A stretch of 64,000 nt of DNA from Vulcanimicrobiota bacterium (GCA_963833095.1 CAWHWQ010000005.1:320001-384000); one strand, 5' to 3'. Counted from the stretch's first letter, positions 948 to 19,273 are shown. Numbers and translations: made by a program. The notes: a model not told the origin generated them from the letters alone.

Positions 948-2087
948 GCGTTGCTGCCGAGCATCGATTCGGGATCGATGCCGTGGAGGGCGCAAAATTC
1001 CCGGTAAGCCTGTGGCGTGATCTCCGAGGGTTTGATCTCGCTGCGTCCGCCCCAAAAGACGTTCGTATACGAAAAATCAATGCCGGCTTCGCGCAGATGC
1101 TCGTCGATCGCAGCTTTGTGCGCAAGCACGCGTTCCTTTTCCATTCCGTGCGCTACCGCCATGACGTTCACGTTCTTGAAATTCCGGACCGCCCTCGCGC
1201 CAATAGGCGTGCGTTATCACGAAGTGCCGCCCGACTTCACGCCCCGCCTCGATCTCGCGCCCGGGCGGAACGGCCCAGTGGAACAGCGCGTTGTAGCGGG
1301 TGACGCGCTCGTCGTTCGCGGTCGCCTTGACGTGTTCGAGGAAGGTCGAAAACCGCCCGATCACCCGCTGCTCGTTGAGTCCGCGCGCCACGCGCGCAAA
1401 TTCCTCAGGGCTTACGCCGGCTTCGCTCGCGCGCGCGAGCCAGACGTCGCGAACGATCTCCTCCGGCGCAAATTCGCGTTTGAGCGCCGTGAGCACACGC
1501 CACTCGAGCGGCGAGAGCTCGACGATTGCCGTATTGTTCGGCTCGGCGAGCGCATCCGCGCGCGCGCCCGGCTCGAGGCCGCGACGGCGCATGTGCCCGA
1601 CGCCCAGCGCGAAGACCATCTTCGCGGGCATCAACGCAAAGTGATCAGCGCCCACTTTGCCGGCGAGAAACTCGGCGTGCTTTTGCAGCGAGTAGCCCTG
1701 GGGCACCTTGAGCGTCGTCCAAAGACGGTAGGTGCTCCCCGGCGTCGCGGTGTCGGTGGACCGTATCACCACGTGGCCCGAAAACGGATCTTCCTTGAAC
1801 ATATAGTCAAAGGCGCGATCGAGCCGATCGGCTGGGACCTGCCACGCCACGAGCGCGCCTCGCGCAAGGTTCGTCGACATCAAGGTCTGGCGCACGCGCC
1901 GGATCGTCCCTGCGCGCAGCATCGCGACCACGCGCTCGATGACGGTGTCCGGCGCGATCCCGCTGCGCGCGGCGATCTCACCGAACGGATCCTCTTGGAA
2001 GCCCTGGAGGCGATCTTCAGAGACCGCCAGGATTGCGGCGTTGACCGGGTCGGAGACCGCGGCTGGAACGGTGGGCTGCGAGGACAT
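944..2087 (-). CDS. Lrp/AsnC-fold siroheme decarboxylase-like protein (fused AhbA/AhbB, NirDL-like); apparent 1-nt frameshift near 1181
   Basis: ORFs 1077..2087 and 944..1171 join as ...HAYWREGGPEF-KNVNVMAVAHG... if one T is removed; two HTH plus AsnC-type repeats. Confidence 0.7.
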
Positions 2088-13036: not shown

Positions 13037-14485
13037 ATGGGGTTTGAGGCTCTTGGTCGCCGGGCGCTTGACACGGCGAGCACTCGTGGTGCCCATTACG
13101 CCGACATTCGTTTCGAAAACGTGCACGGTGAACGCATCGAGGTGCGTAATGGTGTCGTGGCGTCACTCGCCGACGGGCAGAGTTGCGGCTACGGGATTCG
13201 CGCGCTCATTGACGGTGCCTGGGGATTCGCCGCGAGCAGTGACCTTTCCGATTCCGGCGTCGATCGGACCGCGGCTCGCGCGGTCGCGATCGCGCGAGCC
13301 AGCGCAGCGATAGCGCGCGAACGCTTCGGCGAGGCTCCGCTCCATGCGTACATCGATCGCTATCATACCCCGATCGTGCGCGATCCGCGCAAGGTCCCGC
13401 TCGGCGAACGCGTTGCGCTTCTCCTCGAAGCCGAGAAACTCGTTCATGCCGGCGAGCGTATCGCCGTCGGACGCGCGTGGCTGGACTTGTGGCGAACCGA
13501 GAAGTTCTTTTATAGCACCATCGGATCCGCGATCGAGCAAACGATCGTGCAGACGGGAAGCGGTGTGCAAGCGATGGCGGTCGGTGACGGCGACGTTCAG
13601 ACGCGCGCCTTTCCCGGCGACATCGGCCTTTACAAGTCGGGCGGTTGGGAGATCGTCGAGGAAGCAGCGCTCACGCAAAACGCGCAGCGCATCGGCGAGG
13701 AAGCCGCCGCGCTGCTTAGCGCTCCACAATGTCCAAGCGGCACCTTCGATATCATCCTCGGCGGCTCGCAGGTTTCGCTGCAGATTCACGAATCATGCGG
13801 CCATCCAGCCGAACTGGATCGCGTGATGGGATGGGAAGCCAATTTTTCCGGCACGAGTTTTCTCGAGGTTTCGCAACTCGACAAGCTGCGGTACGGATCC
13901 CCGGCCGTCACGATCGTGGTCGACAACAACCTGCCCTCAGGGATGGCGACATGCGGCTACGATGACGAGGGAACCAAATCCGGCACCTCGGACGTCGTGC
14001 GCGACGGCGTGCTGCGCGGATACGAGATGAGCAACGATACGGCGCGTGCGATCGGACGCACCAGCAACGCGTGCGTGCGGGCCCAGAGCTGGGAGTTCGT
14101 GCCCATGATCCGCATGTGCAACCTGAACCTTCTGCCGGGCGACGTCCCGTTCGAGGGGCTCTTCGACGGGGTGCGCGACGGTATTTATATGGAAGGCAAT
14201 CGGTCATGGTCGATCGACGATCGGCGCTTGAACTTCCAATTCGGTTGCCAAATCGGCTGGGAGATCAAGAACGGAAAGCGCGGCCGCATGCTCAAGAATC
14301 CCACGTACGCGGGCGTCACTCCGCAATTTTGGAACGCGTGCGACGCGATCGCTGACGTGGCGTCATGGAACGCGTGGGGGACGCCGAACTGCGGCAAGGG
14401 TGAACCGATGCAGTCCGGGCGCACAACGCAAGCCGCCTCGCCGGCGCGTTTTCGACAGGTGAGCGTCGGAGTCGGTTACCAGTGA
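13037..14485 (+). CDS. tldD: TldD family metalloprotease
   Basis: HESCGH (HExxxH), YDDEG, PMIRMCN, CGKGEP. Confidence 0.9.
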   Translation: MGFEALGRRALDTASTRGAHYADIRFENVHGERIEVRNGVVASLADGQSCGYGIRALIDGAWGFAASSDLSDSGVDRTAARAVAIARASAAIARERFGEAPLHAYIDRYHTPIVRDPRKVPLGERVALLLEAEKLVHAGERIAVGRAWLDLWRTEKFFYSTIGSAIEQTIVQTGSGVQAMAVGDGDVQTRAFPGDIGLYKSGGWEIVEEAALTQNAQRIGEEAAALLSAPQCPSGTFDIILGGSQVSLQIHESCGHPAELDRVMGWEANFSGTSFLEVSQLDKLRYGSPAVTIVVDNNLPSGMATCGYDDEGTKSGTSDVVRDGVLRGYEMSNDTARAIGRTSNACVRAQSWEFVPMIRMCNLNLLPGDVPFEGLFDGVRDGIYMEGNRSWSIDDRRLNFQFGCQIGWEIKNGKRGRMLKNPTYAGVTPQFWNACDAIADVASWNAWGTPNCGKGEPMQSGRTTQAASPARFRQVSVGVGYQ

Positions 14486-15813
14486 AAGCGCCGGAGCGGG
14501 AGGCGATCGCGCGGCGCGCAGTGGAACGCTCGCGCGCGGATCAGACCGAGGTCCGCATCAGTTGCAGCGACGAGTCGCTCACCCGCTTCACGCGCGGCAT
14601 CTCGAACCAAAACGTCGCAGCCGAGGATGTGACGATTTCGATTCGAGCGATCGTCGACGGACGTACCGGCGTCGCGACCTCCAACGACACTAGCGATGCG
14701 GCGGTCGACGCGTTGCTCGCGCAAGCGCTCGACATGGCCTCGTTCGCGCCCAGCGACCCGCTCGTGCCAGTGTTGCCGGAGGGCGGTCCGGCCCAAGCGC
14801 CGGCCGGATGTTACGTCGAGGCGACGGCGACGTGCGACCCGGCAACTCGAGGAACGATCGCGGACGCCATTTTGACGCGAGTGGAGCACGAGCGTTATTG
14901 GTGCGCAGGATACGTGTCCACTTCGAGCGGCGGGACGACAATCGCCAACTCTTCCGGTGCGCTTGCCTCGTTCGACGGCACCGACGCACAGGTCAACGTC
15001 AAGGCGACGGCCCCGGACTCGACCGGCTTTGCCGAGCATTACACCGTCGACGTACGAGAGCTCGACGGGAGCGGAGTCGGTGCGCAAGCGGTAGAGCTCG
15101 CGCGGGCAAGCGCGCAACCGCGCGCGGTCGAGCCTGGACCATGGACGGTGATCTTAGAGCCACCGGCCTTCGGCGAGCTTCTGACCTATCTGCTCGCGCA
15201 TTTTTCGGCCCAAAATTTCAGCGACGGCTCGTCATTCTGCTCCGATGGACTCGATCGCAAATACTTTGACGAACGCGTTACGATGGCTGACGACTTCAGC
15301 CATCCGCTTGCACCGGCGATGCCATTCGATTACGAGGGACAGCCGAAGTCAAAAGTCGCGCTCGTCGTGGCCGGCGTGGTGCGTAACGTCGTGACCGACA
15401 GCTACTATGCAAAAAAGCTTGGCCGGCCCGACACCGGTCATGCGCTTCCCGCACCCAACGCATACGGTCCCCAGCCGCTCAACGTCGTCGTTGCGCCGGG
15501 GACGCAAAGCACGCAAGACCTGATTGCAGGTACGAAGCGCGGGCTCTTGATTTCGCGCTTCTGGTACATTCGCACGGTCGATCAAAAACGCGCGATCGTG
15601 ACCGGGATGACGCGCGACGGCACGTTCTTGATCGAAAACGGCAAGATTGCGGGCGGCGTGCGCAACATGCGCTTCAATCAAAGTATCGTCGAGGCCCTCG
15701 GCTCGGTTGAATTCTCAAACGCGCAAAAGCGCACGGGATCCTACGCGGGATCACTGGTCGTCCCGACCGCGAAGATCGACCGCTTCACCTTTACTAGCAC
15801 AACCGACTTTTAA
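14482..15813 (+). CDS. pmbA: TldE/PmbA family protein
   Basis: Overlaps tldD stop; PFDYEG, TGHA, TGMTRDG; no HExxxH. Confidence 0.85.
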   Translation: MKAPEREAIARRAVERSRADQTEVRISCSDESLTRFTRGISNQNVAAEDVTISIRAIVDGRTGVATSNDTSDAAVDALLAQALDMASFAPSDPLVPVLPEGGPAQAPAGCYVEATATCDPATRGTIADAILTRVEHERYWCAGYVSTSSGGTTIANSSGALASFDGTDAQVNVKATAPDSTGFAEHYTVDVRELDGSGVGAQAVELARASAQPRAVEPGPWTVILEPPAFGELLTYLLAHFSAQNFSDGSSFCSDGLDRKYFDERVTMADDFSHPLAPAMPFDYEGQPKSKVALVVAGVVRNVVTDSYYAKKLGRPDTGHALPAPNAYGPQPLNVVVAPGTQSTQDLIAGTKRGLLISRFWYIRTVDQKRAIVTGMTRDGTFLIENGKIAGGVRNMRFNQSIVEALGSVEFSNAQKRTGSYAGSLVVPTAKIDRFTFTSTTDF

Positions 15814-15843
15814 CGGCCCTTCGGGCCGATCCGCAGATTTTCT

Positions 15844-16578
15844 CTACCGCCCTCCCGCTGCCAGGGCTGCCTTCATCAGTGTGGCGCGGAGTTTGCCGTC
15901 TTCGAGTTCGAACAATCCACGGATCGTGCGTCCTCCCGGCGTCGTTACCTCATGTTTGAGCGCGCCCGGATGGGTTTCGCTCTCCAATACAAGGCGTCCC
16001 GAGCCAAGCACGGTTTGCGCGACCAATACGCGCGCCTGTTCGTACGGAATGCCAAGCGCGATCGCAGCATCGATCAGTGCTTCGATCACAACAAAGATGA
16101 AAGCCGGTCCGCATCCGCTAATCGCGGTAACCGCGTCCATCAACGATTCGTCGAGCACGAGCGTACGGCCGAAGGTATCGAACAGCCCTCGCGTTTGCTC
16201 CAGCGCTTCTTCGTTGCTCTCGCGGGCGCGTGCGAGCACCGTCATCGCAGACGAGACGCGCGCGGGCGTATTCGGCATCACTCGCACGATCCGCGCTCGA
16301 TTCGCCGTCCAGTCGCGCAGCGATCCGGTCTCGACCGCCGCGACCGCCGAAACGAGGATCTGATCTTCGCGTAGCACCGGTGCGATCTGCGTGCAGACCT
16401 CGGCGGCGTCGCGCGGCTTCACGCAGACCACGACGATGTCGCTTCCCGCTGCAACGGCGCAGTTACGTAGCGCCGACGCGCGCGTGGTCGAGTCGATCTC
16501 GCGCACTTGTGGATTGCGCTCGAAGCCCCGCTGCAGCGCACCCCCAAGCGTTCCACGACCGATGATGCCGATCCGCAT
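15844..16578 (-). CDS. proC: Pyrroline-5-carboxylate reductase
   Basis: GIIGRGTLG, CVKP, RVMPNTP, SGCGPAF, VTTPGGRT; GAGGG SD. Confidence 0.95.
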   Translation of the reverse strand: MRIGIIGRGTLGGALQRGFERNPQVREIDSTTRASALRNCAVAAGSDIVVVCVKPRDAAEVCTQIAPVLREDQILVSAVAAVETGSLRDWTANRARIVRVMPNTPARVSSAMTVLARARESNEEALEQTRGLFDTFGRTLVLDESLMDAVTAISGCGPAFIFVVIEALIDAAIALGIPYEQARVLVAQTVLGSGRLVLESETHPGALKHEVTTPGGRTIRGLFELEDGKLRATLMKAALAAGGR

Positions 16579-16594
16579 GTTTCCCTCAATTAAT

Positions 16595-16633
16595 AAAAAA
16601 GACGAACCGCCCCGGTAACCGGAGCGGTTCGTC
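16595..16633 (-). terminator. Intrinsic terminator (attenuator) in the proC leader
   Basis: Minus strand GACGAACCGCTCCGG-TTA-CCGGGGCGGTTCGTC-TTTTTT, ending about 16 nt before the proC ATG. Confidence 0.85.
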
Positions 16634-16656
16634 GCAAAGTGCTTTGACGACGCGCG

Positions 16657-16719
16657 CTACCGAACCGGCATCTCCTGATGCGGCTGCGGCGGGCACGGCG
16701 GGATGTGCACGTACGTCAT
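16657..16719 (-). CDS. Putative proline-rich leader peptide MTYVHIPPCPPQPHQEMPVR (20 aa)
   Basis: ATG..TAG; 6 of 20 codons are CCG (Pro); lies between a promoter and the terminator upstream of proC. Confidence 0.75.
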   Translation of the reverse strand: MTYVHIPPCPPQPHQEMPVR

Positions 16720-16728
16720 TGTCCGGCG

Positions 16729-16758
16729 ATCTTACCCTGCCGCGCGCCTGCGCGTCAA
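16729..16758 (-). promoter_or_regulatory. Sigma70-type promoter for the proC leader
   Basis: TTGACG (16758-16753), 18-nt spacer, TAAGAT (16734-16729); 9 nt to the leader ATG. Confidence 0.7.
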
Positions 16759-17556
16759 GAGCACTCCAATGAATAAGGCGAGAAACCCCGCAGCAACGAC
16801 CGCCAGATCGGGAATCGACACCACCTCGATCGCCGGATAGGAAAGGACGCTGGCGCGCAATCTCAATCCGCCCAAGAGCACCGCTTGGCCGTCAGGCGCG
16901 ACGCCGATACCGTGCCGAACCGGCGCTCCGGTCTCGTCCTCGAGATCGAAGAGAACAACCGGTCCATGGATCGTCGACAGCGCCGGGATTGACGCCGCTT
17001 GTGCCGCCGAAAATAGTACCGCCTTGACAACGCGGTGTGCCGCTGGAACTGCAAACGTATCATATGGTAACGAGAAACCTGCGATCGTCTGCGTGTTTTC
17101 CATCAGTAGCACCGGTGAGAGGAAGGCGCTCCCAGTCGGCTGCGTGATCGTCAAATGCGCGCCGCGCTGATCGAAGGCCTCGACGCCAAGCACGGTGCGC
17201 GGCACGCTGCGCAGCAACGCCGTGGCGGTGTAGCGCCACGCGGCGATCGGCTGCGCATGCAACGGCGGAAATCTCATCGCTCCGCCAGCTTCGTCGACCT
17301 TCAAACTCGTGCCGGGAGCACCGATAACCGTCCGCGTATCCGGACCGAGCAGCCCGCTCGCTATCCCGGCGAACGCGATTGCACCAACGCCAAACGCGAC
17401 CAACGGGGCGCGGCGCATGCCCGCGATCGCCCACATCGCAAGGGCGGCAAGTCCTACGTTGTACCATCCTGCGTGATAGACTGCGCGTCCGGGCAGAACC
17501 ACCTCAAACACGACCGCGAGCACAACGAGCGCCGCGAGGAGCGTTGCGCTCCTCAC
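16732..17556 (-). CDS. Membrane protein, possibly a short ResB-like cytochrome c biogenesis protein
   Basis: C-terminal part of ORF 16732..18474; GTG start overlaps the upstream TGA; three N-terminal TMs, soluble domain, C-terminal TM; adjacent to a ResA/TlpA gene. Confidence 0.55.
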   Translation of the reverse strand: MRSATLLAALVVLAVVFEVVLPGRAVYHAGWYNVGLAALAMWAIAGMRRAPLVAFGVGAIAFAGIASGLLGPDTRTVIGAPGTSLKVDEAGGAMRFPPLHAQPIAAWRYTATALLRSVPRTVLGVEAFDQRGAHLTITQPTGSAFLSPVLLMENTQTIAGFSLPYDTFAVPAAHRVVKAVLFSAAQAASIPALSTIHGPVVLFDLEDETGAPVRHGIGVAPDGQAVLLGGLRLRASVLSYPAIEVVSIPDLAVVAAGFLALFIGVLLTRRRAAG

Positions 17557-18087
17557 GTAGCGCGCACGGCTTGACCGATCGCCGAACGCATCTGTTCGAT
17601 GGTAAGCGGCCCATCGAATCCGCGCTCGACGATACCACGCCGGTCGATCACCACCGTCGTCGGCAATCCCAAGCGCCGAAAAGACCCGTCCATATTGCTG
17701 GGCATCGTCGATCCAAATCGGGAACACGATACCGAGCGAACGCGCGAACGCCGCAGCGCGCGCCGCCGATTCGCCCTGATTCACGCCGACGACCGCCACG
17801 CCGTCTTTCGCGTACTCGCGCGCGACGGTTTGCAGATCCGGCATCTCGGCACGGCAAGGCGGACACCACGAGGCCCATAGATTCATCACGACGATTTTGC
17901 CGCGATACTGCGTCAGCGAGACCGGCGACGCCGCGATCGTCGCGAAGCGCAAAGACGGGAGCGGATCGCCCGACCAATCCAGCGGGACCCGGCCGGGCGC
18001 GCCCCGGGCGCGAAACAGCGGGACAATATGAGCAGCCGCGACCGCGATCGCCGCGAACGACAGCAGCCAACGGGCGCGCGGACTCAC
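17553..18087 (-). CDS. TlpA/ResA-like thiol-disulfide oxidoreductase; apparent frameshift near 17670
   Basis: NLWASWCPPCRAEMP; continues in a shifted frame as LPTTVVIDRRGIV...VRAT*. Confidence 0.85.
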
Positions 18088-18368
18088 CAATCGCCCATCC
18101 GATCTTCGTCGACTTCGCCTTCGAAGACGACCGTTCCGCTGGGCAAAACCGCCGCGAAAAACGGCATGTCGCGAAAGCGAACCTCGCGCTGCCGCGCCGC
18201 TTCGTCGCCGAGACTCGAAGAGCCGGCAGTAGCGATCCAGCACGTCGGGGCTGCAGCGCGCCACGTGCGGCGCGACGTTATAGGTCTCGACGAAACTTTC
18301 GTACGCGCGCTCGAACTCACGGCCCCAAAGCGGGCTTCGAGAACGATCTCGCGTCGGACGCGTTCCAG
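18084..18368 (-). CDS. Small hypothetical protein with two apparent frameshifts
   Basis: GAGGAGG upstream; segments join as ERVRREIVLEARFG-REFERAYESFVETY...YCRLFE-LGDEAARQ...EDRMGDW; start uncertain. Confidence 0.45.
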   Translation of the reverse strand: MERVRREIVLEARFGAVSSSARTKVSSRPITSRRTWRAAAPTCWIATAGSSSLGDEAARQREVRFRDMPFFAAVLPSGTVVFEGEVDEDRMGDW

Positions 18369-18403
18369 GGATGCCTCCTCGGTTACGGAGAAATCGCGAC
18401 GGC

Positions 18404-19273
18404 GTGCCCGCCCGAATACTCGACGGAAAAGCTCTTGCCGCCGAATTGCGCACGGAACTGCTCGCGCGTACCAATGCGCTGCGGGATGCCGGTATTCATC
18501 CCAAGCTGGTCATCGTTTTCGTGGGTGAAAACGAGTCGAGCGTCGCCTACGTCAGAAATCTGGTCAAAACGGCCGAGCGCGTCGGGATCGCGGTCGACGT
18601 CGACCGCCTGCCCGAGCTGCGACCGCGGCCGAGGTGCGCGCACGGCTCGAGCGGCTGCATGACGACCGTTCGGTCCACGGCGTCATGCTCCAGCAGCCGC
18701 TCCCGCCGCATCTTTCGATCCGCGAGATCGCCGACGCGATCCCGGCGCACAAAGACGTCGACGGCACGCATCCGATGAATCAGGGACACCTCGCGTTCGG
18801 CAGCGGCACCGAATACGTGCCCGCGACGCCGGCCGCGGTTATGCTGCTGCTCGAACGCAGCCCGCATTGGCCGCTGCGCGGCCGTCGCGCCGTGATGATC
18901 GGCCGATCGATCGTCGTCGGCGCACCGGTCGCGATGCTGATGCTCGCCCAGGACGCGACCGTCACCGTCCTGCACAAAGAGACGCGCGAGATGCGCCGTG
19001 ACGTAAAGAACGCGGAGATCGTCGTCGTCGCGACCGGCGTGCCGGGACTGATCACCGGCGACGACATCATGCCCGGCGCAACAGTCATCGACGTCGGCAC
19101 GACGGTCGTCGACGGCGTGCTCAAAGGCGACGTCGATTTCGAAAGCGCGGTAAAAGTCGCCGGCGCGATCACGCCGGTTCCCGGCGGCGTCGGCCCGGTC
19201 ACCAACGTCGCGCTGCTGCGCAACGTCGTCAAGAGCGCCGAAAAGATGGGCCTCTCCGCTTCGCTCGCGCTAA
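18404..19273 (+). CDS. folD: Bifunctional methylenetetrahydrofolate dehydrogenase/cyclohydrolase; apparent frameshift near 18620, 3' end uncertain
   Basis: ARILDGKALA...SVAYV in one frame; HKDVDG, PATP, GRSIVVG, IDVG and TPVPGGVGPVT in the next. Confidence 0.9.

Follow-up and report, generated by a model that had tools for sequence, protein, structure and literature searches.

A putative proline-sensing leader-peptide attenuator upstream of proC in an uncultured bacterial phylum

Ribosome-mediated attenuation is textbook knowledge for Trp, His, Phe, Leu, Thr and Ile/Val, and its classical leader peptides are those of the enterobacterial amino-acid operons (trpL, hisL, pheL, leuL, thrL and ilvL). 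Proline biosynthesis is usually described as being under feedback inhibition or, in Bacillus, under T-boxes, which control the proline biosynthetic genes of Bacillus subtilis. Here, we analysed a stretch of 64,000 nucleotides from a Vulcanimicrobiota bacterium (GCA_963833095.1 CAWHWQ010000005.1:320001-384000; hereafter, the window, with positions counted from its first letter), in which a short upstream open reading frame (uORF) with six Pro codons lies directly before proC, the gene for pyrroline-5-carboxylate reductase. The general principle of leader-peptide attenuation is stated in the available portion of PMC1183508. According to the excerpted text of PMC3641672, the Pro codons of the Salmonella leader ORF mgtP, in the mgtCBR leader, sense low prolyl-tRNA, and replacing them abolished the response. 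The original prediction for this locus, made from the sequence alone, knew of no described leader-peptide attenuator for proC; a full-text literature search, which covered neither the survey of Lopatovskaya et al. 2010 nor any supplements, likewise found none for proline biosynthesis.

Architecture of the proC leader

What kind of element separates proC from the gene before it? We consider it quite probable that the proC leader uses its Pro codons to sense proline and controls proC by transcription attenuation of the classical, ribosome-mediated leader-peptide type. The leader unit, consisting of a promoter, the uORF and a terminator, fills the 180 bases that separate the upstream ORF from proC on the minus strand, in the following order:

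16753..16758, minus strand: −35 hexamer TTGACG (promoter scan), within the final codons of the membrane-protein ORF upstream
16729..16734, minus strand: −10 hexamer TAAGAT (promoter scan), overlapping the TAA stop of the upstream ORF and ending 9 nt before the uORF ATG
16657..16719, minus strand: 20-codon leader ORF with its stop codon; peptide MTYVHIPPCPPQPHQEMPVR, ATG at 16719, stop ending at 16657
16681..16701, minus strand: codon cassette 7–13 (P P C P P Q P), the putative stall sites, from the sequence and its Pro enrichment
16651..16697, minus strand: hairpin 1:2 (anti-antiterminator or pause hairpin), from the minimum free energy (MFE) fold and RNAalifold consensus columns 26–72
16655..16668, minus strand: region 2, CCGGTTCGGTAGCG, comprising codons 18–20, the stop codon and 2 nt; putative 5′ strand of the antiterminator
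16630..16652, minus strand: middle hairpin, which forms the interior of the antiterminator as originally predicted; its sequence differs between species and the hairpin is kept
16601..16633, minus strand: terminator hairpin (regions 3:4) of 15 pairs, 11 of them G-C, with a 3-nt loop
16595..16600, minus strand: T6 tail of the terminator, from the sequence
16582..16587, minus strand: Shine-Dalgarno-like GAGGGA of proC, from the sequence
15844..16578, minus strand: proC, pyrroline-5-carboxylate reductase, 244 residues (TIGR00112, Pfam)

The original prediction had placed here a promoter TTGACG-18-TAAGAT, a 20-codon uORF with six Pro codons, all CCG, a 15-bp terminator with U6 and then proC, and every one of these parts is present at its coordinates, with five of the Pro codons confirmed within codons 7–13. 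Hairpin 1:2, absent from that description, was seen in the folds. The window's genome as a whole uses CCG more than any other Pro codon (57% in long ORFs). The sigma-70-like promoter (16758..16729) is one of two promoter-like sites in 14000–19000, where shuffled sequences lead one to expect 0.7. The uORF has no Shine-Dalgarno-like sequence before its ATG, which gives it a near-leaderless geometry, and the T-tail of the intrinsic terminator between the uORF and proC stops 16–22 nt short of the proC start codon. ProC itself scored 218.5 bits on TIGR00112 (cut-off 196.75) and 2e-36 on Pfam P5CR_dimer, and is the sole match to the P5CR-dimerisation domain in the window's genome assembly.

In the mechanism that we infer, from parts, conservation, a match of codons to pathway and alternative pairings all seen in silico, transcription would start just ahead of the ATG, by a few bases, and translation of the 20-codon uORF would need no Shine-Dalgarno sequence. 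With ample prolyl-tRNA, the ribosome would reach the stop codon and cover region 2 (the final codons, the stop and GCGCG), such that the 15-bp terminator would form and transcription would stop before proC. If no ribosome is loaded, the Pro-codon region would pair with region 2 as hairpin 1:2, and the terminator would again form. When prolyl-tRNA is scarce, the ribosome would stall on codons 7–13 and open hairpin 1:2, and region 2 could then pair with the terminator 5′ arm and core, thereby allowing readthrough into proC.

The metabolic context would suit such a sensor. Neither glutamate 5-kinase (proB, TIGR01027) nor glutamate-5-semialdehyde dehydrogenase (proA, TIGR00407) was found over cut-off in any of the 18 genomes of the genus (G000–G017), two of which are single-contig and 93–96% complete, and ornithine aminotransferase (TIGR01885) was over cut-off in all three genus genomes searched. 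These results suggest that proline is probably made from ornithine via pyrroline-5-carboxylate in this genus, and that ProC is probably the only dedicated step to proline, which would make it a logical site for a sensor.

The neighbourhood upstream also deserves description. The leader promoter lies within coding sequence, in the final nine codons of the ORF upstream (...LLTRRRAAG*; window 16732-16760, minus strand), and, because the −35 and −10 boxes overlap its C-terminus, the protein end and the promoter boxes constrain one another. This upstream ORF of 580 residues (window 16732-18474, minus strand) carries a redoxin/AhpC-TSA domain at residues 168–279, followed by a hydrophobic part of about 300 residues without a Pfam match, and it is this hydrophobic part that is also found before proC at two leaderless loci of other genera (L115 and L119). 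The ORF may be two genes.

Conserved and paralogous leaders

A protein search with ProC across 41 genomes gave matches in 26, among them 16 of the 17 relatives within the genus besides the window's own genome. The original prediction had proposed aligning related proC upstream regions in search of a conserved Pro-rich uORF; one is present at all 17 same-genus loci, and diverged versions occur in eight further genera. ProC is 72–98% identical to that of the window across the 17 loci, at every one of which the leader is kept, the ATG lies 9 nt past the −10 box, and both CTCTTGACG (at the −35 region) and GGTAAGATCG are without change. The uORF has 20 codons at 16 loci and 21 at one, through an in-frame 3-nt insertion, and each leader peptide contains five or six Pro residues. 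Codons 2–7 vary freely in amino acid among these loci, with no stop and no frameshift. A search of the window's own genome with the genus leader (nhmmer) found no second copy, the next match having E = 0.16.

Could such a leader have arisen by chance? At least six Pro codons occur in 0.96% of the 3,978 ATG-initiated ORFs of 18–26 codons in the window's genome (62% G+C), and the 151-nt leader has an MFE of −63 kcal/mol, compared with −51.3 ± 3.9 in 200 shuffles (z = −2.98; 0/200 as good). The Pro count by itself is only mildly unusual; it is the conservation across the loci compared that rules out chance.

Outside the genus, we compared the regions upstream of proC at 40 more loci; the window's family contributed 18 of these and other families 22. 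A diverged leader was found in five of the 18 (genera g35, g37, g30, g32 and g40), and the remaining 13 had none; at L115 and L119, proC directly follows the same upstream membrane gene. No leader was found by eye in the 22 regions from other families. A diverged leader is also present in genus g8 (L022) and in three genomes of a second family, of genus g9 (L024–L026), such that proC leaders occur in nine genera in total: that of the window and g35, g37, g30, g32, g40, g4, g8 and g9. The peptides of the diverged leaders include:

g35: MTNRVAFPCPPQPHQEMPVR
g37: MTRAFGPVPCPPSPHRRMPVR
g30: MIRHSMPPCLPTPPPRVPAG
g32: MITLRRPQFPPCWKERVPQG
g40: MLAATVRVPPRRPMRSAPVRVRHG
g8: MFHTPASGFDPRPRCTMQTRRGAMVM
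g9: MF(R/H)..FRPSIPPLR...LG

All of these leaders have a −10-like box 6–10 nt before the start codon and a terminator after the uORF. The seven Pro codons of the g30 leader are spelt CCT, CCG and CCC, and because this spelling is synonymous, the conserved trait is the coding of proline, as an amino acid or codon class, and not one nucleotide word. The two leader-bearing families probably belong to Eremiobacterota, the phylum of the closest named ProC relative among the matches listed (45% identity). proC was found in 81 of 201 genomes of the phylum and in 26 of 113 in the window's family; the tallies over the 201 genomes and the covariance search described below include genomes flagged as unpublished (G198, G223, G225, G228, G234, G238 and G266), which underlie no other statement made here. 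Among the matches listed, 79 proC loci of other phyla showed no Pro-rich uORF, with a maximum of 3 Pro in 28 codons, and five of the 79 had a terminator-like hairpin within 120 nt upstream.

Two further observations concern the distribution of proC and its upstream regions. proC is patchy in the window's family (f1), with genus g20 having it in only 1 of 44 genomes. At L125 and L126 (genus g41), a different conserved element lies about 60–170 nt upstream of proC, in which a TATAAT promoter comes before a hairpin-like stretch rich in G and C, GGGGGCCCC...GGGGGG; it has no T-tail and no Pro-rich ORF.

Is the leader scaffold confined to proC? From an alignment of 21 proC leaders (A2), we obtained an RNAalifold consensus of 31 pairs and, from it, a covariance model built from proC leaders only (R1), with which 151 genomes of the family were searched. 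Among the matches listed, all 16 scoring at least 50 bits were directly upstream of proC (in g1, g35, g30, g37, g32 and g4), with downstream ORFs that matched ProC by blastp at E = 1e-55 to 1e-93. Matches of 26–40 bits were leaders on the same scaffold before other genes. Nine of these precede a gene for 3-deoxy-D-arabino-heptulosonate 7-phosphate (DAHP) synthase (PF00793, 220 bits for L182) and have uORFs with runs of Trp, Tyr and Phe, including MTNLRASSYWFSFPPHDPCR, MSIAFRFWYWFSRTFVPVP, MKISFARYFWWLTARQMPVS and MTHRAFSYWYWFAPHESMPVR. One precedes anthranilate synthase I (trpE; PF04715 and PF00425), and its uORF encodes MDANNRGWWPVGYRIDTR. This last, trpL-like leader (L175; G296, genus g4; local 1501-1660, minus strand) has a GTG start and a T-poor terminator tail (TTCTGTTCTGTTC).

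When the proC and aromatic (aro) leaders were aligned (A4), TGCCGGT was invariant, the stop-codon region and GC.CGC were common to both, and only the codon cassette differed. The common scaffold consists of a C-terminal codon tail, ...PH..MPVR, a stop codon followed by GCGCGCG, and a terminator GCCGC...ACCGG...GCGGC; one aro leader ends in ...PHESMPVR, compared with ...PHQEMPVR in the window peptide. Because Pro18 of the window peptide lies in this tail, which is common to non-proline paralogues, it is probably structural, as part of the CCGG of region 2, and not a sensing codon. We compared codon classes with one leader per genus, excluding Met1 and the four scaffold codons at the end; the Fisher p-values overstate independence, the genera being related:

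Pro codons: 37/152 in proC leaders (9 genera), 2/117 in aro/trp leaders (8); Fisher 3e-8
Trp/Tyr/Phe codons: 9/152 in proC leaders (9 genera), 39/117 in aro/trp leaders (8); Fisher 5e-9

This paralogy is the strongest evidence obtained. It also raises the question of whether, in this family, one leaderless scaffold was duplicated and re-aimed, at proline, aromatic amino acids or tryptophan, by the swap of a cassette of 6–8 codons, with Pro-Pro pairs possibly adding translation speed dependent on elongation factor P (EF-P) to proline supply as a signal; the case for such a re-codable chassis is, in our judgement, about evenly balanced.

Leaders of this type also occur elsewhere in the window's own genome (G000). 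Scanning it for ORFs that follow a strong terminator yielded 61 candidates; a short uORF lay upstream in 16 cases, and three of these stand out beside that of proC. The first, with the peptide MSVFQAHVHHHHHHGLASRVR (HHHHHH), lies at about 403,130-403,370 on the plus strand of C1 and has a 13-bp terminator, followed by a hisG-like gene that scored 57.7 bits on TIGR00070, under the cut-off of 75.75. The second, MTVHSFSYAFWYYYFGLGGPRGFAHA (FSYAFWYYYF), at about 46,230-45,447 on the minus strand of C1, is followed by a terminator and the prephenate dehydratase gene pheA, downstream of which lies a DAHP synthase homologue (C1:44314-45081). The third is the Ile/Leu/Val-rich MILASLLLVVLALISRSSPNRLGLTTA, at about 455,700-455,530 on the minus strand of C5, which has a 15-bp terminator (12 G-C pairs) before ilvB, the gene for the acetolactate synthase large subunit (598 bits on TIGR00118). 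In all three, the start codon lies 6–11 nt after a −10-like box. Since these near-leaderless leaders carry cognate codons before hisG-like, pheA and ilvB genes, such leaders appear to be routine in this organism.

The same codon patterns bear on the best-surviving of the alternatives, which keeps the architecture and changes the signal: the leader might report the capacity for polyproline translation (EF-P, its modification or general translation speed), with the rise in proC being incidental or belonging to a broader response. EF-P-dependent ribosome stalling at Pro-Pro is established, and in eight of the nine genera the proC leader contains a Pro-Pro pair, with Pro-Pro-Pro in g30. However, consecutive cognate codons are usual in classical leaders, the leader of genus g8 has no such pair, the regulated gene is itself a proline-synthesis gene, and the paralogues obey a cognate-amino-acid rule (Trp/Tyr/Phe for aromatic genes, HHHHHH for the hisG-like gene). 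We therefore regard this explanation as unlikely.

Alternative pairings and rival explanations

The attenuator that we favour requires mutually exclusive RNA structures. In the predicted fold of the free leader, the stretch of Pro codons is paired with the end of the uORF, its stop codon and the GCGCG after it, forming hairpin 1:2 (16697..16651); this hairpin was present in the MFE fold, in the RNAalifold consensus and in free-RNA folds of 11 leaders, although most of its pairs never vary and covariation is scarce. We then folded these 11 leaders, from eight genera, under constraint, with a ribosome masked at the Pro cluster or at the stop codon. With the mask on the Pro cluster, region 2 paired with from 5/9 to 17/19 of the terminator 5′-arm bases, at −16 to −41 kcal/mol; with the mask at the late Pro19 of L026, only 4 of 14 terminator 5′-arm bases were paired. 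With the mask at the stop codon, the region-2 structure dropped to −0.6 to −9.1 kcal/mol. Region 2 is no more than about 12 nt away from the stop codon and would thus be occluded by a ribosome terminating there.

Covariation was uneven among the stems. Compensatory changes were found in 9 of the 31 pairs of the RNAalifold consensus of 21 leaders, and among the stems is the terminator, which has changes on both sides in 6 of 13 consensus pairs, whereas the antiterminator has two double-change pairs in whichever register it is read. The hairpin originally proposed as the antiterminator does exist in the sequence; however, a second register, in which region 2 faces the terminator core (16612..16626), fits at least as well on these counts. 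The two were compared over the 21 aligned leaders, with an alignment made by covariance model (A3) left out on account of mixed-in reverse-strand matches, and the poorly aligning middle hairpin (16630..16652) was assessed without pair counts:

Original register, CGGTT(CG) with (CG)AACCG: 92.5% of cells paired, 2 double-change pairs; reached by 1/500 shuffles for percentage paired and 37/500 for double changes
Core register, CCGGTTCGGTAGCG with the terminator core CGCTCCGG..ACCGG: 96.7% of cells paired, 2 double-change pairs; reached by 14/500 shuffles for percentage paired and 17/500 for double changes

It is the core register that is seen in the aro paralogues, in which CCGGTGAGG faces CCTCACCGG, CCGGTGAG faces CTTACCGG, CCGGTAAG faces CTTACCGG and CCGGTGC faces GCACCGG. 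In the predicted pairing, these facing strands are covariation across paralogues. The duplex between region 2 and the terminator beat the shuffle mean in 26 of 26 leaders, with small individual z values (−0.03 to −3.7). It is likely, on this comparative evidence, that an antiterminator exists; its exact form is less certain.

Several results count against a proline-sensing attenuator. The covariation of the antiterminator is thin, with two registers fitting. Folding both conformers, as the original prediction had suggested, reproduced a switch of pairing under the ribosome masks, but not an unusual stability: in 11 leaders, compared with 300 dinucleotide shuffles of the spacer, the antiterminator was no more stable (z from −1.75 to +0.34); a terminator arm rich in G+C can find a partner in any spacer that is likewise G+C-rich. 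The leaders of g8 are only weakly enriched in Pro (3/26 codons, no Pro-Pro pair) and those of g9 modestly (3–5/26), and the 5′ end of the leader transcript was placed from promoter geometry alone. Among the sequencing runs listed as containing the locus, four are DNA runs of a single study and none is an RNA run. The relatedness of the genera, already noted for the codon test, belongs with these points. Finally, a 49-nt core, from the CCG of Pro codon 8 to just beyond the stop codon, is nucleotide-invariant in the genus save for three substitutions, which would equally fit an RNA that binds a protein or ligand.

This last point is the basis of a second alternative, an RNA-only switch in which the invariant core binds a protein, tRNA or small molecule and the reading frame is incidental. 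The core is invariant in 17 species with third codon positions included, codons 14–20 being changed in only three of the 17, and this conservation goes beyond what the peptide requires. However, the invariance is also explicable by the overlapping constraints of codons, 1:2 pairing and 2:3 pairing, and in other genera the same segment changes with its Pro codons and frame kept. The one indel in the genus is in frame, the spacing between −10 box and start codon is constant, and the paralogues exchange the codon cassette alone. An Rfam cmscan of 15500-17800 at E ≤ 10 gave nine weak matches, none at gathering score and none to a T-box (RF00230) or to a His, Leu, Thr, Trp or Phe leader. Two of them, the top-scoring rnk_pseudo (27.1 bits against a gathering score of 55) and BcKCsr2 (20.3 against 40), were read as generic terminator-like similarity. 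We consider the RNA-only switch distinctly improbable.

It is scarcely credible that there is no regulation at all, with the hairpin being the terminator of the upstream membrane-protein gene, the proC promoter lying elsewhere and the small ORF being an accident of G+C-rich sequence, since, although about 1% of the short ORFs of the genome have as many Pro codons by chance and proC follows the same upstream gene without any leader at L115 and L119, the terminator lies about 100 nt past the stop codon of that gene, from which a conserved promoter and ORF separate it, the space between the T-tail and proC is too short for another promoter, and the presence of the leader in nine genera and the paralogue pattern speak against chance. 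The trp/his-type attenuator of the original prediction thus emerges as the preferred reading, and the conserved uORF, start and frame, the Pro codons in nine genera, the compensatory changes in the terminator and the Trp/Tyr/Phe codons of the paralogues all argue for it.

Comparison with known attenuators

The mechanism proposed here is well known, being of the trp/his type; its apparent specificity for proline, on proC, and the phylum in which it occurs are those for which we found no published description. A conserved Pro-codon leader before proC would extend classical attenuation to proline, and the leaders described above suggest that, in a phylum without cultured members, leader peptides of the leaderless kind are routine. 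The proC leader may also serve as a compact natural proline sensor suited to reporter tests. The scaffold that the proC leaders have in common with those of aromatic genes and trpE gives an unusual opportunity to see attenuator specificity change and, if the re-codable chassis is true, would illustrate how attenuators for other amino acids originate in nature.

How does the proC leader relate to the systems already described? In the B. subtilis T-box, as in our model, tRNA-Pro charging sets the readthrough of a terminator before proline-synthesis genes, but there the uncharged tRNA binds the RNA directly, with neither a ribosome nor a uORF. Salmonella mgtP and mgtL (the mgtA leader) resemble the proC leader in that a short ORF with Pro codons senses low prolyl-tRNA and switches alternative stem-loops; in contrast, as far as the excerpted text of PMC3641672 describes them, they are Shine-Dalgarno-led, belong to long multi-signal leaders and control genes of Mg2+ transport and virulence, and the proC leader has no sequence relationship to them and is not a member of their group. 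The mycobacterial polycysteine ORFs (bioRxiv 10.1101/834739, in its accessible portion) are likewise reported to be leaderless short ORFs that are rich in one amino acid and attenuate related downstream genes, but their amino acid is cysteine and their hosts are Actinomycetota; the likeness drawn here concerns the type of ORF. The attenuators predicted in Actinobacteria (PMC1262725, in the portion available) are, like ours, classical attenuators found by comparative genomics in G+C-rich non-Proteobacteria; by term count they include no proline case, the word ‘proline’ occurring 0 times in the counted text of that paper and of PMC2965389, PMC4833913 and PMC13236596.

The closest relatives in mechanism would be the enterobacterial leaders. 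The proC leader differs from these in its amino acid and gene (proline and proC), in its near-leaderless uORF, theirs being Shine-Dalgarno-led, in its uncultured phylum (probably Eremiobacterota) and in matching no Rfam leader family. It shares with them a short ORF with clustered codons for the amino acid of its own pathway, a set of 1:2, 2:3 and 3:4 hairpins, as predicted here, and a terminator placed before the first biosynthetic gene.

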